From the UHGV virus genome UHGV-1946849: a stretch of DNA of 11,494 bases; one strand, given 5' to 3'. The translations under genes were made by a program, and so were the position numbers. A model generated the notes under the pieces. It made no database searches and was not told the origin of the DNA. It was given only the letters and a program-made list of their open reading frames with translations. Positions 1 to 11,494 of the stretch are shown one piece after another (positions within the stretch are counted from its first letter, which is position 1; each line of letters starts with the position of its first letter). The DNA comes from a virus.

Positions 1-4
1 GCAT

Positions 5-2735: not shown

Positions 2736-3035
2736 ATGAAACTTAAATATTCTGGCTTAACTGCCAGTGGCAACACTCACCCTAAATTTACGCGCGGCGA
2801 TATTTACCGCGACCAGTACGGCGGCACGGTAATGATTAAGGGCGTGGAAGAACGGCGCGTAACCTACCGCCGTGAAGGTTACGAATATGATTGCGTGATG
2901 CCTGTTTATCAGTTCCGGCGTGATTTTTCTCTGGTACAGACCGCGCCGCATAACGTGTCCACCAGCAACGCCAGGGCACGGGCAAACATCCAGAAGCTGA
3001 AAACCATGATTAACGGATTCAGGGGTAAAAAATGA
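2736..3035 (+). CDS. Hypothetical protein (99 aa) immediately upstream of and coupled to the primase gene
   Basis: GGAGA ribosome-binding site; stop overlaps the primase ATG (ATGA). Confidence 0.55.
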   Translation: MKLKYSGLTASGNTHPKFTRGDIYRDQYGGTVMIKGVEERRVTYRREGYEYDCVMPVYQFRRDFSLVQTAPHNVSTSNARARANIQKLKTMINGFRGKK

Positions 3036-4786
3036 AACTGGCACCGAACGTAAAACAGCAGTCACGCGGCATAAAACACAAAGAAACAGAAGTCATTATT
3101 TTTGCGGGTAGTGATGCCTGGTCACACGCAAAACAATGGCAGGGACATGACGCGCGTATGGCCGGAGATAATGAGCCTCCTGTGTGGCTTGGGGAGCAGC
3201 AGTTATCCGAACTGGATAAGCTGCAAATTGTGCCGGAAGGCAGAAAATCCGTGCGCATATTCAGGGCCGGATATCTTGCGCCAGTAATGATAAAGGCGAT
3301 TGGTCAGAAGCTGGCGGCGGCAGGCGTACAGGATGCAAATTTTTACCCTGATGGTATGCACGGTCAGAAGGTGGAGAACTGGCGCGAATATCTGGCCCGT
3401 GAGCGCCAGAATCTTTCTGATGGTCTGGTCATTGAGCTTCCGGTAAAGCAAAAGGCGCAACTTTCGCAGATGGCGGACAGTGAGCGCGCGCAGCTGCTTG
3501 CCGATCGCTTTGATGGCGTTTGCGTACATCCTGAAAGTGAAATCGTTCACGTATGGCGCGGCGGGGTATGGTGTCCGGTCAGCACAATGGAACTTAGCCG
3601 CGAAATGGTGGCGATCTATTCAGAGCACAGGGCCACTTTCAGCAAGCGCGTAATCAATAACGCCGTGGAAGCGTTAAAAGTTATTGCCGAACCAATGGGC
3701 GAGCCGTCCGGCGATTTGTTGCCGTTCGCCAATGGTGCGCTTGACCTGAAAACGGGGGAATTTTCCCCGCACACGCCGGAGAACTGGATCACCACGCACA
3801 ACGGCATTGAGTACACGCCACCAGCACCAGGGGAGAACATCCGCGATAACGCGCCAAACTTTCATAAATGGCTTGAGCACGCAGCCGGAAAAGACCCGCG
3901 CAAGATGATGCGTATATGTGCCGCGCTGTACATGATTATGGCGAACCGGTACGACTGGCAGATGTTTATTGAGGCCACCGGAGACGGCGGGAGCGGTAAA
4001 AGTACATTCACACACATAGCCAGCCTTCTGGCAGGGAAACAGAACACGGTAAGCGCTGAAATGACATCGCTTGATGATGCTGGTGGACGTGCGCAGGTTG
4101 TCGGGAGTCGTCTTATCGTCCTGGCTGACCAGCCGAAATATACAGGCGAAGGAACGGGCATCAAGAAAATCACGGGCGGTGACCCCGTGGAAATTAACCC
4201 GAAATACGAAAAGCGTTTCACGGCGGTAATCAGGGCGGTGGTGCTGGCGACCAACAATAACCCGATGATATTCACCGAACGGGCCGGAGGTGTGGCACGT
4301 CGTCGCGTGATTTTCCGTTTCGACAATATCGTCAGTGAGGCCGAAAAAGACAGGGAGCTACCGGAAAAGATCGCGGCTGAAATCCCTGTCATTATCCGCC
4401 GATTGCTGGCGAACTTTACCGACCCTGAGAAGGCACGGGCTTTACTACTGGAACAGCGTGACGGTGATGAAGCTCTGGCAATAAAGCAACAGACGGATCC
4501 GGTTATTGAGTTTTGCCAGTTCCTGAATTTTCTGGAGGAAGCACGCGGCCTGATGATGGGCGGCGGTGGCGATTCAGTGAAGTACACGACCAGAAACAGC
4601 CTTTACCGCGTCTATCTGGCGTTTATGGCGTACGCAGGCAGGAGCAAACCGCTAAACGTAAATGACTTTGGCAAGGCTATGAAGCCAGCCGCGAAAGTTT
4701 ACGGACATGAATATATTACGCGGAAAGTTAAGGGAGTAACGCAGACTAACGCAATAACAACAGACGAGTGCGACGCGTTTTTATAA
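3032..4786 (+). CDS. Replication protein: P4-family primase C-terminal domain / D5-N plus SF3 helicase (584 aa)
   Basis: Walker A GDGGSGKST, a D5-N-like segment LPFANGALDLKTGEF...NGIEY and an SF3 motif C VVLATNNNP; size and layout match Pri-Rep proteins of P4-like elements and PICIs. Confidence 0.88.
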   Translation: MKLAPNVKQQSRGIKHKETEVIIFAGSDAWSHAKQWQGHDARMAGDNEPPVWLGEQQLSELDKLQIVPEGRKSVRIFRAGYLAPVMIKAIGQKLAAAGVQDANFYPDGMHGQKVENWREYLARERQNLSDGLVIELPVKQKAQLSQMADSERAQLLADRFDGVCVHPESEIVHVWRGGVWCPVSTMELSREMVAIYSEHRATFSKRVINNAVEALKVIAEPMGEPSGDLLPFANGALDLKTGEFSPHTPENWITTHNGIEYTPPAPGENIRDNAPNFHKWLEHAAGKDPRKMMRICAALYMIMANRYDWQMFIEATGDGGSGKSTFTHIASLLAGKQNTVSAEMTSLDDAGGRAQVVGSRLIVLADQPKYTGEGTGIKKITGGDPVEINPKYEKRFTAVIRAVVLATNNNPMIFTERAGGVARRRVIFRFDNIVSEAEKDRELPEKIAAEIPVIIRRLLANFTDPEKARALLLEQRDGDEALAIKQQTDPVIEFCQFLNFLEEARGLMMGGGGDSVKYTTRNSLYRVYLAFMAYAGRSKPLNVNDFGKAMKPAAKVYGHEYITRKVKGVTQTNAITTDECDAFL

Positions 4787-4800
4787 TTTTTTGTAATTGC

Positions 4801-5026
4801 TGTCTACCCTGTCTACCTGAGTAAAGAAAAATACATTTAATTCAGTGCATTAAGTTAGGTAGATAGCCTTTTTTTACTGTCTACCCACTATCTACCCTCT
4901 CTACCTGATTTTACCTGAATCAGACAGGGAGGTAGACACGGGGTAGATAGTGGATAAAAGCACTCTACCCCGCTGAAAGCCGCGCCATTACTGGTATGAG
5001 GGCCACTAAGGTAGATAAGGTAGACA
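4801..5026. repeat. Iteron cluster, candidate replication origin / cis replication region
   Basis: At least 11 copies of (G/T)TCTACC(C) in both orientations (forward at 4802, 4811, 4879, 4890, 4900, 4964; reverse GGTAGA at 4858, 4931, 4942, 5010, 5019), non-coding, directly downstream of the primase gene. Confidence 0.6.
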
Positions 5027-5074: not shown

Positions 5075-5353
5075 ATGCACACTTCAGGGAAATTTAATAA
5101 ATCACTCAAAAAACGCAGAGACAGAACAGAACCGAAATATCGCGCGTTAGACATGACAGAGCACGCTTTAAAGGTGGCAATCAGAACGATAGACCGCCAC
5201 GCGGGGGAAGGATACGCGAAAGCACATCCCGAACTGATAAGCGCATTCATGACCACGACGGCGGCAAATTTTGCCACGCTGACAGAGCGGGAGATTGCCG
5301 AAGCGGAACAGGTAACAACCATCAACGTTAAAACCGGAGAGGTGGAATCATGA
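5075..5353 (+). CDS. Hypothetical protein (92 aa), coupled to the ssb-like gene
   Basis: GAGGGGG ribosome-binding site upstream; stop overlaps the next ATG (ATGA). Confidence 0.55.
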   Translation: MHTSGKFNKSLKKRRDRTEPKYRALDMTEHALKVAIRTIDRHAGEGYAKAHPELISAFMTTTAANFATLTEREIAEAEQVTTINVKTGEVES

Positions 5354-5772
5354 CAGCACAGATAGCAGCTTACGGGCGGCTGGTGGACGACCCGCAGGTA
5401 AAACAGACCAGCAAGGGCACACCGATGACGCTGGCGCGTATGGCGGTCCCCCTTCCGTGCAGCCAGGCAGATGACGGAACGGCGACGATGTGGTTATCCG
5501 TCCTGGCATTTGGCAGACAGGCCGAAGCACTGGAAAGGCACCGCAAGGGTGAACTCCTGAGCGTGGCGGGTAACATGCAGATCAGCCAGTGGACTGGGCA
5601 GAACGGAGAAACGCGGCAGGGCTGGCAGGTTATCGCAGACAGTGTAATCAGTGCGCGAACGGCGCGACTGGGCGGCAAAAAAGGTCAACAGGGCCAGGCT
5701 ACTGACGCGCTGAACAGGGCAAAACAACAGGCGGGGAATGATGATCCGTACGGGGATAACATACCGTTTTAA
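5350..5772 (+). CDS. ssb: Single-stranded DNA-binding protein homologue (140 aa)
   Basis: OB-fold segment WLSVLAFGRQAEALERHRKGELLSVAGNMQISQWTGQNGETRQGWQVIADSV aligns with E. coli SSB [52 protein letters not shown]; Gly/Gln-rich linker; C-terminal DDPYGDNIPF resembles the SSB acidic tip DDDIPF. Confidence 0.8.
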   Translation: MTAQIAAYGRLVDDPQVKQTSKGTPMTLARMAVPLPCSQADDGTATMWLSVLAFGRQAEALERHRKGELLSVAGNMQISQWTGQNGETRQGWQVIADSVISARTARLGGKKGQQGQATDALNRAKQQAGNDDPYGDNIPF

Positions 5773-5787
5773 GCGACGAGTGACAGA

Positions 5788-5811
5788 AGCCGGAGCAATC
5801 CGGCTTTTTTA
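5788..5811 (+). terminator. Rho-independent terminator after the ssb-like gene
   Basis: Stem GCCGGA (5789..5794), loop GCAA, stem TCCGGC (5799..5804), then TTTTTT. Confidence 0.7.
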
Positions 5812-5860
5812 CGGGTCCTCCTGGCGGGGTGGGCCTGAACACGGGGCGGGAAGCGCGGAA
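5811..5860 (+). other. Degenerate cos-like relic (cosQ-like with a disrupted cosN)
   Basis: ACGGGTCCTCCTGG...ACGGGGCGGGAAGCGCGG parallels the intact copy at 8253..8300 (ACGGGTCCTTTCCGG...ACGGGGCGGCGACCTCGCGG), and the preceding terminator hairpin is duplicated too. Confidence 0.5.
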
Positions 5861-5990
5861 AAAAGCGCATTTTTGTGATTTTATCGTCATCATCATCATG
5901 AGCGTAATTTATTGTTTTTAATTGTTTTGATGCAAAAAAGATGATGGTTGTGGTTAATTTTCGTTCGACATCTTTGCAGGCAGATAAAAA

Positions 5991-6027
5991 AGCCCGATAA
6001 GGTCAGAGGTGGCTTATCGGGCTTTTG
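5991..6027. terminator. Strong hairpin, bidirectional terminator-like
   Basis: Perfect 11-bp inverted repeat AGCCCGATAAG / CTTATCGGGCT with an 11-nt loop, flanked by an A-run upstream and TTTT downstream. Confidence 0.5.
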
Positions 6028-6103
6028 CATATGAGGCTTTTTGGTGCACTGACACACATGAGCGGGATCATCATTTCATAATTTGCAACACAACTCAATA
6101 TCA

Positions 6104-6152
6104 TTGCACAAAACGCAATCCTGATTATAATCAGAGCTGGATGAACATCCAG
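6104..6152 (+). promoter_or_regulatory. Candidate sigma-70 promoter of the capsid operon with a 16-bp palindrome at the predicted start
   Basis: -35 TTGCAC (6104..6109), 16-bp spacer, -10 TATAAT (6126..6131); perfect palindrome CTGGATGAACATCCAG at 6137..6152. Confidence 0.5.
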
Positions 6153-6187
6153 TTATGATTTTTTAAGTCGAAGAGGAATTTCTTACT

Positions 6188-6394
6188 ATGGCTGAAGAGA
6201 AAAAAGGCGGTGTTTCGGTGTACATAAGCCCCGAAATCGTGGAGGTGCTCAAGCAGCGCCACAAAAAAAACTATGAGGCTGGCGTGGCGGCTGGACTGGA
6301 TCCGCTGATGACGCCGGAGCCGTCGATAGGTTCACTTGTACGCTCTTATTTACTTGCGGCGCTTGGGATGCATAAAAATTATGGGGGTGAATAA
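6188..6394 (+). CDS. Hypothetical small protein (68 aa) translationally coupled to the capsid gene
   Basis: AAGAGGA ribosome-binding site; stop TAA overlaps the capsid ATG (TAATG). Confidence 0.6.
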   Translation: MAEEKKGGVSVYISPEIVEVLKQRHKKNYEAGVAAGLDPLMTPEPSIGSLVRSYLLAALGMHKNYGGE

Positions 6395-7449
6395 TGGCAG
6401 GCAAAGCAACGGCACTTAACACTAACCAGCTTTTCATGTACCTGAATCGCGGGGATATTGCGGATTTTAAATTCAGCCCTCTGTTTACTACGCTGTTTTT
6501 CCCGAACGTGGCGACATTCAGCACGCAAAACATCATGCTGGATACCCTGGACATTGAAGAAGTCACCATGTCGGCGTTTTGTTCGCCTATGGTGGGTAGC
6601 CAGGTTCAGCGCGATAAAGGGTACGAAACCAGCACGATTAAACCTGGCTACATGAAGCCAAAGCACGAAATCGATCCAACGAAAACCATCATGCGCATGG
6701 CTGGAGAAGATCCGGCACAGCTTAACGACCCTACCTATCGCCGTATGCGCCTGATTACTGGCAATATGCGCCGCCAGATAAACGCCATAAAAGCGCGCGT
6801 GGAATGGCTGGCGGTAAATGCGGTAACGACCGGAAAAAACATCATTGAGGGCGAAGGCATAGAGCGCTATGAAATCGACTGGAAGATACCGGAAAAAAAC
6901 ATCATAGAGCAGGCCGACGGGAAAAAATGGTCAGCGCAGGACAAAGAAACCCACGATCCAATCTATGATATCGAACTATACGCCGATCAGGCTGGTTGCC
7001 CCGCAAACGTCATGATTATGGGCGCTGAGGTATGGCGAACGTTACGCAGCTTTAAAAAATTCCGTGAGCTGTACGATCTTTCCCGTGGTTCAGAATCCGC
7101 CGCCGAACTGGCCTGTAAAAACCTGGGCGAAGTGGTGAGCTTTAAAGGCTATCTTGGTGATCTGGCCCTTATCGTCTATTCCGGCAAATACACTGACAGC
7201 GATGGTACCGAAAAATATTTCCTTGAGCCTGATTTGCTGGTCCTAGGTAACACCAACAATAAAGGGCTGGTGGCCTATGGTGCGATAATGGATCAGGAAG
7301 CGGTAAGAACGGGCGCAACACAAAACATGTTTTACCCGAAAAACTGGATTGAGGACGGCGATCCGGCGATTGAGTACGTGCAGACACACAGTGCACCGCA
7401 GCCGGTACCGGCAGATATTCGCAAATTTGTTACCGTCAAAATTGGTTAA
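6394..7449 (+). CDS. Major capsid protein, lambda gpE-like (351 aa)
   Basis: Colinear similarity to lambda E as recalled: FSPLF..LFF, KPGYMKPKHEIDP, DPTYRRMR, GSESAAELACKNLGEVVSFKGYLGDLALIVYSGKYTD, LVLGNT, YPKNW, GDPA. Confidence 0.9.
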   Translation: MAGKATALNTNQLFMYLNRGDIADFKFSPLFTTLFFPNVATFSTQNIMLDTLDIEEVTMSAFCSPMVGSQVQRDKGYETSTIKPGYMKPKHEIDPTKTIMRMAGEDPAQLNDPTYRRMRLITGNMRRQINAIKARVEWLAVNAVTTGKNIIEGEGIERYEIDWKIPEKNIIEQADGKKWSAQDKETHDPIYDIELYADQAGCPANVMIMGAEVWRTLRSFKKFRELYDLSRGSESAAELACKNLGEVVSFKGYLGDLALIVYSGKYTDSDGTEKYFLEPDLLVLGNTNNKGLVAYGAIMDQEAVRTGATQNMFYPKNWIEDGDPAIEYVQTHSAPQPVPADIRKFVTVKIG

Positions 7450-7461
7450 CGGGGGGATTCT

Positions 7462-7797
7462 ATGGACACTCCATACATTGAGTTATTTGCAGGCAGTCAG
7501 CGGGTCGCCACGACGCTGGTACATTTTGCCGCTGATGCTGGCGTTATTCAGGAATTTACCCCGCTGATGCTGGCAGACAATGGCGAGTTTAAGCCGTGGG
7601 ATGGTCAGGAATCTGGCAAGGCTGTTTATCTGACCTCGTACCCTGTGGACACGTCAAAGCAGAAATCAGCACAGTGTTACAAGACGGGGATTTTCAATAT
7701 TGCCGCCGTTAACTGGCCTGAGAGCGTCGACACCGATGCGAAAAAATGCGCCGCCTTTGCGGGTTCCGGCGTATCCGTTCAGCCGCTGGCCCGATAA
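7462..7797 (+). CDS. Head decoration protein, lambda gpD-like (111 aa)
   Basis: FTPLMLAD, WDG, YKTGIFN, WPES and KKCAAFAGSG match the lambda D motifs TPLMLDT, WDG, YKSGTFR, WPEA and KKRTAFAGT. Confidence 0.82.
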   Translation: MDTPYIELFAGSQRVATTLVHFAADAGVIQEFTPLMLADNGEFKPWDGQESGKAVYLTSYPVDTSKQKSAQCYKTGIFNIAAVNWPESVDTDAKKCAAFAGSGVSVQPLAR

Positions 7798-7809
7798 GCA
7801 GGGGGAACG

Positions 7810-8223
7810 ATGGCAACGAATGAAAGCGTCATGACGCTACCGCTGGCGAGTAAATTTAAAGCCGAAGCGCGGGCAATGGCTGACAGAGGTTTATCAACCT
7901 ACGAGGCCGTATATCAACTCAACAAACTGGAAGAGCAGGACAAGCCGCGCGCTGATGCGATTATGGCGCTTCATGAACATAACGACTATCAGCCGCTGTT
8001 ACGTGCAATGGCAAACGTGCCATGTATTAGCGTCGATAATGCTCGTGAAATCCTGAACATGACCATAGAGCAGGAGCGCCCAAAGGTTGCGCCGGAGCTT
8101 ACCGCAGCCTTTGAAAACTTTATGGACATGCACAGCCCGAAAGCCGTATCACCCGGCATGGCATACGACGGCAGAAACCAGGGCGATGAAGGCGACGTCG
8201 ATCGCATACTGAAAACCATCTGA
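7810..8223 (+). CDS. Hypothetical protein (137 aa), last gene of the capsid operon
   Basis: GGGGGAA ribosome-binding site; followed by the terminator at 8229..8252. Confidence 0.6.
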   Translation: MATNESVMTLPLASKFKAEARAMADRGLSTYEAVYQLNKLEEQDKPRADAIMALHEHNDYQPLLRAMANVPCISVDNAREILNMTIEQERPKVAPELTAAFENFMDMHSPKAVSPGMAYDGRNQGDEGDVDRILKTI

Positions 8224-8228
8224 CATAA

Positions 8229-8252
8229 GGCCGGAGAAATCCGGCTTTTTTT
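8229..8252 (+). terminator. Rho-independent terminator
   Basis: Stem GCCGGA (8230..8235), loop GAAA, stem TCCGGC (8240..8245), then TTTTTTT; near-identical to the terminator at 5788..5811. Confidence 0.7.
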
Positions 8253-8310
8253 ACGGGTCCTTTCCGGCATATGGACCCGTTACGGGGCGGCGACCTCGCG
8301 GGTTTTCGCT
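8253..8310 (+). other. Lambda-type cos site (cosQ and cosN with the 12-nt cohesive end GGGCGGCGACCT at 8285..8296) with a truncated cosB
   Basis: ACGGGTCCTTTCCGG...GTTACGGGGCGGCGACCTCGCGGGTTTTCGCTATTTATGA matches the lambda cos junction as recalled; it then diverges to CGTTTTTCCGTG, and the Nu1-like gene starts only about 90 bp downstream. Confidence 0.85.
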
Positions 8311-8385
8311 ATTTATGACGTTTTTCCGTGAAGGTGACACCACCACCACTTGATTAATATTTAACCATGCAGTTAAGGTAACATT

Positions 8386-8820
8386 ATGATTGATAAAGCT
8401 TGTTTTGTAAGTCAGCAGGAAATAGCTGAACATTTCAAGGTTAACAGAACCACTATTCGCGCATGGACCAAACAGGGGATGCCGTATCTTAATGCGGATC
8501 GCGGAAAGTCTGGCGGTTATCACATCGGGCATACATTGCTTTGGTCTTCAGGTAAAAGCCGTCTTGAGACCATCAGATATCACGTAGAAACCAGTGCGCT
8601 GGAAAAAATTATGTTTGCCAGGCTGCTTTCATCTGAGCGTGACGAGTACTCCAGTGAAGAAACAGAACATCGATTTGATGAAGGTTTGCAGATTTACGGC
8701 TATTCACCGGAAGATGTGAGCAAGGCACGAAATAAAATGGCTGGCTTTCTGGCTGGGTGGCGTCATGCCATAAGCGTTCGCCGTGCCAGCATGGAGCAAT
8801 CAGCCGATACAGAACAGTAA
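8386..8820 (+). CDS. Small terminase (lambda Nu1)-like protein, candidate Rpp-type packaging-redirection factor (144 aa)
   Basis: N-terminus VSQQEIAEHFKVNRTTIRAWTKQGMPYLNADRGKSGGYHIGHTLLWSSGKS aligns with lambda Nu1 VNKKQLADIFGASIRTIQNWQEQGMPVLRGGGKGNEVLYDSAAVIKWYAER; no large terminase gene follows. Confidence 0.78.
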   Translation: MIDKACFVSQQEIAEHFKVNRTTIRAWTKQGMPYLNADRGKSGGYHIGHTLLWSSGKSRLETIRYHVETSALEKIMFARLLSSERDEYSSEETEHRFDEGLQIYGYSPEDVSKARNKMAGFLAGWRHAISVRRASMEQSADTEQ

Positions 8821-8887
8821 AGCCGATAACTTGTTAATCACTCGCAGCAATGCATGTGATTTGTGCACACTTTCGGTTAACTGGTTC

Positions 8888-9066
8888 GATGTCCGGTTTT
8901 AGTGTCTGTTTTTTGCGCATGTCCGGTTCATGGAAAGCATGTTTTTATATTTTTCATATGGTTAACTTGCAGAGAAACCGGACATGGATCCCGAAAAATT
9001 TTCATAAATAGTGAAAACGCGCGAGGTCGCCGCCCCGTAACGGGCCATAATTCCAGGAAGGACCCG
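8888..9066 (-). other. Second lambda-type cos site in inverted orientation, with a distinct cosB made of three ATGTCCGGTT elements
   Basis: Reverse complement of 9001..9066 reads ACGGGTCCTTCCTGG...GTTACGGGGCGGCGACCTCGCGCGTTTTCACTATTTATGAA (cohesive end at 9024..9035); R-like elements at 8889..8898, 8919..8928 and inverted at 8976..8985, with an AT-rich spacer between. Confidence 0.75.
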
Positions 9067-9099
9067 ACGACACCAGACTATCAGAGCGATGGGGGCACA

Positions 9100-9381
9100 A
9101 TGACAGAAGCCGAACTACTGGGATTAATCCGCCGCGTTACCGGAATCAGCCAGCAGCATGACGAACAGGCCACGCAGCCGGACAGCGTGACCGCCGAAAA
9201 TTACGCGCGTGTGGTTGCTGAGGTGATGCGCCGTGATGGTATCCAGCTTAATGATGTGGATATGCGCAACATACGGATCCGCGTTCTTGAAATGCTGGCC
9301 TACAATCGCCGCGTGGCACTGTATCGGGAAACGGAGAAAATTACGTACCACTGGAAGAAGCCGGAGCGGTTACGGCGTTAA
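9100..9381 (+). CDS. Hypothetical protein (93 aa from ATG 9100; the track ORF starts at 8902 inside the cos sequence)
   Basis: ATG 9100 preceded by GGGGG; upstream in-frame sequence is the inverted cos site. Confidence 0.5.
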   Translation: MTEAELLGLIRRVTGISQQHDEQATQPDSVTAENYARVVAEVMRRDGIQLNDVDMRNIRIRVLEMLAYNRRVALYRETEKITYHWKKPERLRR

Positions 9382-9397
9382 CGAGTAGCGACATACC

Positions 9398-9556
9398 GTG
9401 ACGGAGAGTGACAACCAGTGACACGCCGTGACAAAAGACGGTTTAACCGTTAATTAAAAATTGACGGGATTTTGTGCTTTCCGGACGACGTGACCAACGT
9501 CATTTTTTAGCGAAAAGTTCTGATTAAGGTCATTGTCTGAATGGTCATAATGACCA
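9398..9556. promoter_or_regulatory. Array of GTGAC-family binding-site repeats
   Basis: Four GTGAC copies at exactly 10-bp phasing (9398, 9408, 9418, 9428), an inverted pair GTGACCAACGTCAT (9490..9503), and the palindrome TGGTCATAATGACCA (9542..9556). Confidence 0.5.
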
Positions 9557-9717
9557 CTCCTACAAAACAGGTAAAGCCCACCAGCCTGATTAACAGTTAA
9601 CCGGAAAAAAAATCCGGTAGCCCCGTTATGGGGATCCCCATATCAACATTAACGCCCCTCATGAATTAGCGCGCTTCCCCCTGGAAAGATGACCCGCCTG
9701 TATATTTCTTGTGTCTA

Positions 9718-10012
9718 TTTGTTCCACGTTGTTTCATACAGTGCACCGAACGGTGTAGTCACTGGTGTAGTCATTTTGCGATTTATGGCACTTTTTGTAG
9801 TGCAAATCATTTAATTAAATCAATGCGTTAAGTGAAATTAGTTATATATAACAGCATTTTATCATTTAGTGTTTTTTGCTGTTTCATAATGTTTCAGGCT
9901 GTGCATTATGTTTTTGATTATCAACAGATTTGTGATTTTCCTTGTTCCAGCTTGTTTCACGTTGTAGCCCTTTGTGCAACGATCGGTGTAGTCACTGGTG
10001 TAGTCACTTTTT
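9718..10012. repeat. Duplicated element of about 60 bp upstream of int, each copy ending in tandem GGTGTAGTCA repeats
   Basis: CGGTGTAGTCACTGGTGTAGTCA at 9751..9773 and 9984..10006 with similar upstream context, flanking an AT-rich stretch of about 200 bp. Confidence 0.6.
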
Positions 10013-10031: not shown

Positions 10032-11261
10032 GTGAGCAGAGCAATGAACAAACTGAGCGATACCTTGCTAAGGAAACTTCATGGTAAGCCAGCGGAGAAA
10101 AACACGTTTTATAGTGATGGCGGAAACCTGAGCGTGAAATATTTAACATCAGGGAAATTGACCTGGTATTTCACATACAGGGCCGGAACGGGAAGGGAGA
10201 CACGACCCGAACGCATTAAGCTGGGAAGTTATCCTGATCTGAGCCTGAAAGCAGCCAGGGAAAAAGCCGCACAGTGTCGCACATGGCTGGCTGAGGGGAA
10301 AAATCCACGTCATGAGATGAATTACACCGTACAGGAAGCGTTAAAGCCCGTAACGGTTGGCGATGCGCTCACCTACTGGCTTGAGTATTACGTAAAGGAA
10401 AACCGCGTGGATTATATCGCCCTGAAAAGGCGACTTAATAATCACGTAATACAGCAGATTGGTGCTATGCCGCTGGATAAATGCGAGCTACGGCACTGGC
10501 TGGCCTGTTTTGACCAGGTGGTAAAGCGAACGCCTGTTACTGCCGGATTCGTGCTACAGGCGTGCAAACAGGCGCTTAAGTTCTGCCGTAGGCGGCGCTA
10601 TGCAATCAGCAACGTTCTGGACGATCTGAACGTTGCGGACGTTGGGAAAAAACCGGATATAAGCGAACGTGTCTTAAGTAACAAAGAACTTGGCGAATTA
10701 TTGCAGGCACTGGACAAAAAAATATTCTCCCCTTACTACGTCGCGTTAATCCGCCTCCTGATTGTCTTCGGAGCCAGAACGGTAGAACTGAGGTTATCGG
10801 AGATCGGGGAGTGGGATTTTACGGAAATGCTATGGACCGTTCCGAAGGAGCACAGCAAAACGAAGGTCGCAATATTCCGGCCCATACCGGAAGCGATCCT
10901 GCCGTTCGTCACGCAGCTGGTGGAGCAGAACAGGCACACGGGCTTATTGCTGGGGGAAGTGAAACAGGAGGCCAGCGTATCGCAGTATGGAAGATTAGCG
11001 CACAGGAGGCTTAATCACCCTCACTGGTCACTGCATGACATCCGGCGCACCTTTACAACCATGCTGAACGATTTAGGCGTTGATCCGCATGTCGTGGAGC
11101 AGCTTACAGGCCACCAGATGCCAGGAATGCAGCGAGTTTATAATCATTCCCGTTATCTGGATGCGAAACGCAATGCGCTGGATATGTGGACGGAGCGGTT
11201 AGGGATACTGGCGGGAACACATGAAAACGTAACCACGCTACCCGTAGCCAGAAGAAAATAA
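10032..11261 (+). CDS. int: Tyrosine recombinase, P4-type integrase with N-terminal arm-binding domain (409 aa)
   Basis: N-terminal arm-binding-domain pattern (DGGNLSVKYLTSGKLTWYFTYR...IKLGSYPDLSLKAAREKA); catalytic region with R..HDIRRT..LTGH..Y residues; GTG start after GAGGGGG. Confidence 0.93.
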   Translation: MSRAMNKLSDTLLRKLHGKPAEKNTFYSDGGNLSVKYLTSGKLTWYFTYRAGTGRETRPERIKLGSYPDLSLKAAREKAAQCRTWLAEGKNPRHEMNYTVQEALKPVTVGDALTYWLEYYVKENRVDYIALKRRLNNHVIQQIGAMPLDKCELRHWLACFDQVVKRTPVTAGFVLQACKQALKFCRRRRYAISNVLDDLNVADVGKKPDISERVLSNKELGELLQALDKKIFSPYYVALIRLLIVFGARTVELRLSEIGEWDFTEMLWTVPKEHSKTKVAIFRPIPEAILPFVTQLVEQNRHTGLLLGEVKQEASVSQYGRLAHRRLNHPHWSLHDIRRTFTTMLNDLGVDPHVVEQLTGHQMPGMQRVYNHSRYLDAKRNALDMWTERLGILAGTHENVTTLPVARRK

Positions 11262-11278: not shown

Positions 11279-11355
11279 CAGTATGCGCATACTGGATATG
11301 CGAACAGATACAACGTGCAACAATGAGCAACAATGTGGAACAACTACGAACAAGA
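11279..11355. promoter_or_regulatory. Candidate integrase arm-type / accessory sites next to the right repeat
   Basis: Perfect 16-bp palindrome CAGTATGCGCATACTG (11279..11294) and (C/G)AACAA repeats at about 10-bp phasing (11302..11355, including GCAACAATG twice). Confidence 0.4.
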
Positions 11356-11417: not shown

Positions 11418-11494
11418 CTAGCGAATCACTCTTTAAAGAGCGAGAAAAAAGGCATGGAACAATATTTTATGCCTTTGTATTAACATGAATTTAA
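11418..11494. repeat. Right attachment-site direct repeat (attR candidate)
   Basis: Identical to 5..81; the window ends at the repeat end, so the identity could extend further. Confidence 0.8.

Follow-up and report, generated by a model that had tools for sequence, protein, structure and literature searches.

A putative third cos site, related to those of Stx-type lambdoid phages, in an EcCICFT073-type phage-inducible chromosomal island of Escherichia coli

The UHGV virus genome UHGV-1946849 (11,494 nucleotides; the whole stretch is referred to here as the window) reads as a complete, circularly permuted phage-inducible chromosomal island (PICI) of the EcCICFT073 type, that is, an Escherichia coli satellite of ~11.4 kb. 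Its capsid operon is bracketed by two direct copies (A and B) of a unit made up of a hairpin and a cos core, and an inverted cos copy (C) follows downstream. The analysis presented here indicates that copy A, designated cosX, is probably an intact cos site of a second lambdoid lineage, which would serve a second class of helper phages. This lineage, as characterised from sequence, comprises the long-tailed Shiga toxin (Stx) phages, VT1-Sakai, mEp460 and mEp213, and combines a gpA-type large terminase subunit (TerL) with a small subunit (TerS) of the DUF1441 type and a fused protease-capsid head gene. The three cos sites of the island would accordingly differ in their predicted cosB specificity, with cosX suited to DUF1441-TerS helpers, cos1 (copy B) to the RppA-TerS complex of lambda/phi80-type Nu1 helpers and cos2 (copy C) resembling the sites of PhiR12-type Nu1 phages. 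The assignment of cosX is based on its homology, its position in phages, its conservation and its distribution among islands, from which we infer cleavage and packaging at cosX in the island.

Repeat units bracketing the capsid operon

The original prediction, made from the letters of the window, described a hairpin-plus-cos unit duplicated around the promoter region and the capsid operon, and this repeat was confirmed. A pattern search returned two matches, GCCGGAGCAATCCGGC-T6 at 5789-5810 and GCCGGAGAAATCCGGC-T7 at 8230-8251 (none in 200 shuffles), and the hairpins of the two direct copies differ by one loop base. Both fold as strong GNRA-loop stems followed by a T-run; the first (H), which forms the left part of the repeat unit, ends the replication operon with its gene for single-stranded DNA-binding protein (SSB), and the second (H') ends the capsid operon. 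The core GGGTCCT-N-ACGGGGCGG occurs three times, at 5813-5849 (+), 8255-8290 (+) and 9030-9065 (-), with none expected by chance. The prediction of three cos-derived elements, one of them inverted, also stands, the inverted third copy being real (78-nt arms, 82% complementary). In each copy a lambda-like cosQ (GGGTCCT, at 5813-5819, 8255-8261 and, on the minus strand, 9059-9065) lies 23-24 nt ahead of ACG-GGGCGG, and each has a cosN of the lambda-like form (PMC4669245), reading ACG-GGGCGGGAAGCG-CGG in copy A and ACG-GGGCGGCGACCT-CGC in copies B and C. The elements of this region are as follows; the R3-, R2- and R1-like motifs were assigned from sequence.

5789-5810, + strand: intrinsic terminator H, stem GCCGGA/TCCGGC, GCAA loop, T6 (-15.4 kcal/mol, z = -5.95)
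5805-5977, + strand: cosX (copy A), a putative cos site of the Stx2/VT1-Sakai/mEp460/mEp213 type, by homology and layout
5813-5819, + strand: cosQ of cosX
5844-5855, + strand: predicted cohesive-end segment of cosX, GGGCGGGAAGCG
5885-5899, + strand: R3-like motif of cosX, CGTCATCATCATCAT
5940-5953: R2-like motif (inverted) of cosX, GATGATGGTTGTGG
5967-5975, + strand: R1-like motif of cosX, CGACATCTTT
5981-6033: second strong hairpin, AAAAAAGCCCGATAAG...CTTATCGGGCTTTT (-25.6 kcal/mol)
6188-8223, + strand: capsid operon of four genes
8230-8252, + strand: intrinsic terminator H', stem as in H, GAAA loop, T7 (-14.0 kcal/mol)
8255-8385, + strand: cos1 (copy B), with cosQ at 8255-8261, the lambda cohesive end GGGCGGCGACCT at 8285-8296 and the Rpp-specific cosB ACCACCACC
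8850-9066, - strand: cos2 (inverted copy C), with cosQ at 9059-9065, cohesive end at 9024-9035 and a phage-type cosB with repeated ATGTCCGG motifs extending down to ~8850

The cosX element in phages

In a BLAST comparison with phage records, positions 5775-5990 matched long-tailed Stx2 phages and VT1-Sakai at 87-90% identity over ~170 nt (~87% for VT1-Sakai), and more weakly mEp460, mEp213 and mEp043. In the Stx2d phage LC567830, the segment matching window positions 5806-5975 is situated between the Rz endopeptidase gene and terS, and ends 68 nt before terS; it is in this interval that a lambdoid genome carries its cos. A scan of IMG/VR for the cosX cosQ-spacer signature GGGTCCTCCNGGNGGGGTGG, with classification of the neighbouring genes, identified 98 phage contigs in which the element is directly upstream of a DUF1441-type terS. 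The location between lysis genes and terS is common to the cosX type (LC567830 and the 98 contigs) and the cos2 type (PhiR12_1).

Two further phages bear on the position of the cut. In the mEp460_4F5 record, which is linear, the last letters are ...GGGTCCTCCCGGTGGGGTGGCCTG and the first are CCACGGGGCGGGAGCGCGG, which places its termini inside the cosX element and gives indirect support for cutting there; the publication on this isolate is silent about its ends. The mEp213 genome has the same cosQ-spacer signature and reads GGGCGGCGCGCT, a 12-mer that is given in PMC12315714 as the putative mEp213 cos site with attribution to Vahanian et al. (2017) and a personal communication of M. Feiss. Phages of the cosX type encode a gpA-type large terminase, their small terminase belonging to DUF1441 and not to the Nu1 family, and the fused ClpP-capsid (protease-capsid) head gene of these phages is also carried by islands related to the one in the window.

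Conservation of the predicted functional motifs of cosX

The Stx2d phage cos, with 87.5% identity over 184 nt, resembles copy A far more than copy B does (60.6%), and the differences between copy A and the phage cos cluster in the spacer between the R3-like and R2-like motifs, which is A/T-rich. Relative to the nick, the R3-like CGTCATCATCATCAT occupies +42 to +56 (in lambda-like cos sites, the R sites start ~45-65 bp from the nick) and is followed by the inverted R2-like and the direct R1-like motif; these are candidate TerS-binding sites. All three motifs recur without change in the corresponding Stx2d phage segment, and they are conserved throughout an alignment of 50 unique sequences of this cosB subtype, 29 from phages and 21 from PICIs. 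Across this alignment cosQ, ACGGGGCGG, GCGCGG, the R3-like GTCATCATCATCA, the GATG core of the inverted R2-like motif and the R1-like CATC are invariant, and the spacers vary. Every position that is invariant in the phage family is kept in copy A, so that the loss of conserved positions by which a scar would be recognised is not seen.

The original prediction further held that the cosN of copy A had been destroyed. In fact, its left half and both CG flanks are retained and the differences are confined to bp 7-12. In lambda-like phages, cosQ, bp 1-6 of the cohesive end and the CG nick flanks are conserved and bp 7-12 vary freely (Feiss et al., 2015, PMC4669245); since the cosN of copy A follows exactly this pattern of natural variation, it cannot be described as destroyed. 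Lambda TerL itself nicks cosN variants with changes in the right half (PMC4669245). Within this half, the 3-5 nt after GGGCGG (window 5850-5853) vary in sequence and length among otherwise near-identical cosX copies (GAA, GAG, GCG, GCGG, AGGG, GTCG).

Distribution of cosX among related islands

In order to place the window among its relatives, 80 IMG/VR loci were fetched by means of the phrog_1561 gene, which marks the right end of these islands, and their genes and cos cores were mapped. The capsid module with gpE and gpD homologues is followed by a lambda-type cos in all 50 loci that carry it, and the module with the fused protease-capsid gene (ProtMCP) is followed by cosX in 5 of 5. A further 25 loci have an open reading frame (ORF) of large-terminase size just upstream of the anchor gene and look like capsid-forming PICIs, an assignment made by ORF size and position only. 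An extra, upstream cosX is optional, being found in 11 gpE/gpD islands and 3 ProtMCP islands. Among 49 gpE/gpD islands, the gap between the SSB gene and the capsid operon (window 5773-6187) holds perC in 29, cosX in 11, neither in ~9 and both in none; the two do co-occur in ProtMCP islands such as L002.

The comparison with the prototype EcCICFT073 is particularly informative. The same operon and hairpin pair are present there, with the upstream hairpin followed directly by the second hairpin (5981-6033 in the window), at which the segment common to both islands upstream of the capsid operon starts; the ~175-nt cosX cassette is precisely absent. The upstream hairpin was found in 42 of the 49 gpE/gpD islands, 30 of them without cosX, and the downstream hairpin in 46. 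On account of EcCICFT073 and these counts, the terminator pair is regarded as the constant frame of the capsid operon and cosX as an add-on, and the hairpin and cos parts of the repeat unit have separate histories.

In islands L023, L069, L031 and L209, cosX is the only cos found, and in the ProtMCP islands L002, L011, L030 and L065 two direct cosX copies stand around the capsid gene. Capsid-less islands with a single cosX between the SSB or PerC gene and the right-end gene were also encountered, L031 and NZ_CP075852 having been read in sequence; NZ_CP132728 has the same span and annotation, as judged from the match table only. The single cosX of L031 and NZ_CP075852 is a hybrid that joins an upstream-type left context and AGGGG variable segment to a downstream-type cosB, the crossover being located in the ~11 nt that follow this segment on its right. 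Judged by its composition, such a hybrid is what would be left by deletion between direct cos repeats. The position of the crossover, known from two cases only, fits homologous recombination; it also fits a mechanism in which terminase cuts the two sites and the resulting ends anneal.

These observations settle in part what had been anticipated of related islands. Variation at the level of modules does occur, with cos units at the module junctions. Islands that lack the capsid module and retain a single cos were to be expected as well; for the gpE/gpD type none came to light, as a search of 5,426 complete E. coli genomes for the capsid-less A/B recombinant (represented by a synthetic SSB-hairpin-cos1-rpp junction) returned no instance and EcCICFT073 has the module without copy A, and only the sister ProtMCP type provides them.

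The phrog_1561 gene is conserved in every island type, directly after cos2, cosX or the large-terminase-sized ORF. In minimal islands, it occupies the position relative to cosX that terS has in phages. No Pfam or PDB match was obtained for its protein.

The cos1 and cos2 sites

Copy B corresponds to EcCICFT073 cos1 (99.4%, 155/156 from the hairpin to the rpp start codon), and its matches to phages extend only through cosN to ~+35. The sole difference in the 156 nt is next to cosQ, where EcCICFT073 cos1 has ATGGGTCCT (L007 11027-11029) and the window ACGGGTCCT (8253-8255). Copy C is the reverse complement of EcCICFT073 cos.2, and the interval from rpp to the phrog_1561 gene is 99.6% identical to CFT073; the sequences of cos.1 and cos.2 are printed in the supplement of Fillol-Salom et al. 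(2018, PMC6092414). Both sites, which flank rppA, are experimentally functional (PMC6092414; PMC6739421). Transfer by lambda and phi80 needs cos1, whose cosB is read by the RppA-TerS heterodimer (PMC6092414; PMC6739421).

The EcCICFT073 papers compared cos2 only with lambda, phi80 and CFT073 phage 4 (PMC6092414; PMC6739421). In the present analysis, the reverse complement of 8830-9075 matched the cos of PhiR12-like phages, in their Rz-Nu1 interval, at 93.3% over 179 nt; because this match covers the region after cosN, cos2 is considered to carry a phage-type cosB, in which three ATGTCCGG-type repeats are present.

Some cos1 copies (L008-L087) have, behind the cos1 hairpin, the cosQ-cosN spacer TTCCTGGAATTATGGCCCGTT typical of cos2, a pattern suggestive of gene conversion involving cos1 and the inversely oriented cos2. 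A derivation of Rpp from the TerS of cosX phages was considered in view of the resemblance of ACCACCACC in cos1 to ATCATCATC in cosX and was rejected, as BLASTP against the Stx2d and mEp460 TerS revealed no similarity.

Proposed function of cosX and alternative explanations

The most economical function of cosX is Rpp-independent recognition and packaging of the island by cosX-type helpers. On induction of such a helper, its TerS would bind to cosX, at the R3/R2/R1-like sites, on the concatemer formed as the island replicates and position TerL to nick at the variant cosN, and island multimers would be packaged rightwards from cosX by a route independent of RppA. Four island units amount to ~45.7 kb, which is near the length of several cosX-type phage records (44.5-46.3 kb). 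The known TerS partners of Rpp are those of lambda, of phi80 and of CFT073 prophage 4, which is of the phage-21 type. A site independent of Rpp makes functional sense because the cosX-type phages combine a gpA-type TerL with a TerS that is not of the Nu1 family. The A/B bracket itself would be a product of modular mosaicism. The majority of such islands have the operon between two near-identical terminators; behind the downstream one, cos1 would be part of a lambda-matched packaging module, and behind the upstream one, cosX would be an optional, added cassette.

A role of cosX in packaging also meets with several objections. It is dispensable, as EcCICFT073 transfers well without it and most gpE/gpD islands do not have it, and extra cos sites can be costly, deletion of cos2 having increased EcCICFT073 transfer (PMC6092414). 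With cosX in direct orientation and 2.4 kb ahead of cos1, premature termination and mismatched cohesive ends could result, and a lambda-type terminase started at cos1 might stop at cosX. Copy A has 10 nt between GGGCGG and the conserved CGCGG, where lambda has 12 (9-12 within the family), and since this spacing varies, the predicted nick positions and overhang length are inexact. Most of the phage matches come from records of prophage origin, some of them without proof of viability, and a function of cosX in PICIs is a prediction.

The main rival holds that cosX is an intact-looking phage cos fragment, acquired by recombination with a prophage, which does not contribute to the transfer of the island. 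Its presence or absence among otherwise near-identical islands would agree with such a neutral passenger, as would its sharing of one gap with perC in gpE/gpD islands. Likewise, many genomes with the window-type element (including several top matches) have no second place with cosX, i.e., no resident cosX prophage. Set against this are the retention of every functional motif in islands that differ in replicon (pri or repA) and in capsid module, the islands in which cosX is the sole cos, and the 87-90% identity to the sampled phages, by which the acquisition was not very recent. On balance this explanation is considered unlikely, albeit deserving of attention.

Another proposal is that cosX acts mainly on helper terminase, in cis or in trans, as a decoy or a stop, either by interference through titration of the TerS of cosX-type phages or by offering a lambda-type terminase started at cos1 an additional cosQ/cosN at which to end, without any start of packaging. 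Termination needs cosQ and cosN and not cosB, the tolerance of lambda TerL for right-half cosN variants (PMC4669245) would allow it, and cosX and cos1 are co-oriented. The complete cosB-like region with its R3/R2/R1-like motifs, which a stop site would not need, is nevertheless conserved, and cuts at cos1 and cosX would yield mismatched cohesive ends; the proposal is accordingly rated improbable.

Finally, the original prediction had interpreted copy A as a decayed duplicate of the island cos, left as a scar by insertion of the capsid genes at a cos region, for which speak the exact bracketing of the operon by direct repeats, the modular variation with cos units at junctions and the capsid-less ProtMCP derivatives with one hybrid cos. 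This is now judged highly improbable and is ranked well behind the neutral passenger, since copy A belongs to a family of phage cos sites, all of whose conserved positions it retains, and is nearer to the phage site than to copy B, and the operon is not tied to the A/B repeat, given EcCICFT073 with operon and both hairpins without copy A, the 30 of 42 islands with the upstream hairpin and no cosX, and the lack of the capsid-less A/B junction in the 5,426 genomes.

Gene content and organisation of the island

All substantial genes of the window are on the + strand and are listed below.

133-402, + strand: alpA
2736-3035, + strand: DUF4222 gene
3032-4786, + strand: D5-type primase gene
5350-5772, + strand: SSB gene
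6188-6394, + strand: small ORF, first gene of the capsid operon
6394-7449, + strand: lambda gpE-like major capsid gene (Phage_cap_E, 4.8e-52)
7462-7797, + strand: gpD-like decoration protein gene (HDPD, 2.9e-17)
7810-8223, + strand: scaffold-like protein gene
8386-8820, + strand: rppA (redirecting phage packaging; helix-turn-helix protein), with 143/145 translated positions equal to EcCICFT073 RppA
9100-9381, + strand: phrog_1561 gene, function unassigned, conserved right-end gene (93 aa)
10032-11261, + strand: tyrosine integrase gene (int)

The capsid operon has matches to phrog_29, phrog_49 and phrog_1999, and the EcCICFT073 orthologues of its capsid and decoration genes are c1499 and c1500 (PMC6092414). 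The rppA product matches PDB 6HLK (RppC structure, E = 4.5e-31), and residues R21, T22 and W27 are all present in the window RppA. The window therefore shows the features of an EcCICFT073-type (Rpp) cos PICI, that is, int-alpA, pri/rep with an adjacent putative ori, capsid E/D homologues, and rpp between cos1 and an inverted cos2.

Positions 5-81 are perfectly repeated at 11418-11494 (a terminal redundancy of 77 nt), and the gene order is circularly permuted with respect to the integrated copy, with int at the right end and alpA at the left. Over positions 5300-9400 the window has 100% identity with an island that E. coli O18:H1 CFSAN067215 carries integrated in tqsA, where int-alpA comes first and the phrog_1561 gene last. 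From the terminal repeat together with this integrated gene order, the window is concluded to be a circular permutation of a complete PICI. The redundancy and the permuted order look like circular or concatemer assembly, and window positions 1-4 (GCAT) differ from the bases preceding the second 77-nt copy.

Iterons CTGTCTACC(C/T)TGTCTACCTGA, in direct and inverted orientation, are located at 4800-4908 and 5005-5026, directly 3' of the primase gene, and probably constitute the replication origin of the island. Upstream of int there is an imperfect 76-nt direct repeat with GGTGTAGTCACTGGTGTAGTCA (9702-9777 and 9935-10010), and after int (11307-11355) TTGTTCCAC-type motifs follow in inverted orientation; these repeats may be integrase arm sites flanking attP. 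Directly after the phrog_1561 gene (9398-9440) are four GTGAC(A) motifs with a spacing of 7-11 nt, and L002, an island with an unrelated module, shares the first part of this block, to which the reading of L002 was confined. An Rfam scan of the whole window returned no known RNA family, no tRNA genes are present in the window, and a generic promoter/terminator scan gave counts equal to the shuffle expectation and listed neither repeat hairpin.

Relation to known cos-type satellites and phages

The use of helper cos sites by PICIs and the presence of two cos sites in EcCICFT073 are already established. The window shares with EcCICFT073 (Fillol-Salom et al., 2018, ISME J, PMC6092414; 2019, Mol Cell, PMC6739421) the island family, gene order, cos1, the cos2 interval, RppA and the c1499/c1500 homologues, whereas the prototype has perC and no cosX and the window a third cos site. 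Moreover, these papers report two cos sites without an identifiable phage cosB, in contrast to the 93% identity found here between the cosB of cos2 and the cos of PhiR12-like phages. With the variant-cosN sites of the mEp213/LLS and Gifsy types (PMC4669245; Vahanian et al., 2017, via PMC12315714), cosX has in common the cosQ-cosN-cosB layout, the conserved GGGTCCT, GGGCGG and CG flanks, and the variable bp 7-12; the phage sites are located between lysis genes and terS, whereas cosX of the window belongs to a satellite and lies upstream of a capsid operon and not of terS.

Packaging of satellites via a copy of the helper's cos has been described for SaPIbov5/SaPIbov4 and the helper-embedded PICI 11capE (PMC6092414; PMC10111431). 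Between 11capE and its helper, 258 bp at the position of cos are 90% identical (PMC10111431), and SaPIbov4 has two putative cos sites (PMC6092414). These satellites were reported with one or two sites, whereas the island in the window would have a helper-type site, an Rpp-private site and a third one. No description of the third cos site, its phage lineage or the pairing of cos type with capsid module was found in the searchable literature, the coverage of which is incomplete.

The hybrid cosX of the capsid-less L031 and L209 fits segment loss of a kind that lambda also displays. In lambda with duplicated direct cos sites, the intervening segment can be lost by cutting or recombination. For the cosX/cos1 pair, by contrast, no deletion product was seen in the 5,426 genomes. 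A broader proposal, which is advanced here with considerable doubt, is that PICIs of E. coli build up arrays of cos sites, which suit the terminases of different helpers and are paired with helper-matched capsid modules, and that these sites drive the loss and exchange of modules; terminase cuts at two direct copies, followed by annealing of the unequal ends, would delete the intervening module and leave a hybrid cos joined at the cohesive end. If correct, this cut-and-anneal view would also explain the variable stretch of 3-5 nt in the cosX cohesive end.

Implications for helper range

An island with three cos sites represents a modest extension of known satellite biology. If cosX works as proposed, islands of this kind could be mobilised by two unrelated systems of terminase recognition, i.e., Nu1-type helpers via Rpp and DUF1441-TerS helpers (including the long-tailed Stx phages) directly, and the published picture of two cos sites without a phage-like cosB would be corrected. 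The sequence rule by which the cos type follows the capsid-module type could, furthermore, aid in the prediction of helpers for uncharacterised islands. A functional cosX would therefore widen the predicted helper range of a common family of E. coli PICIs and link their spread to the induction of Stx phages.

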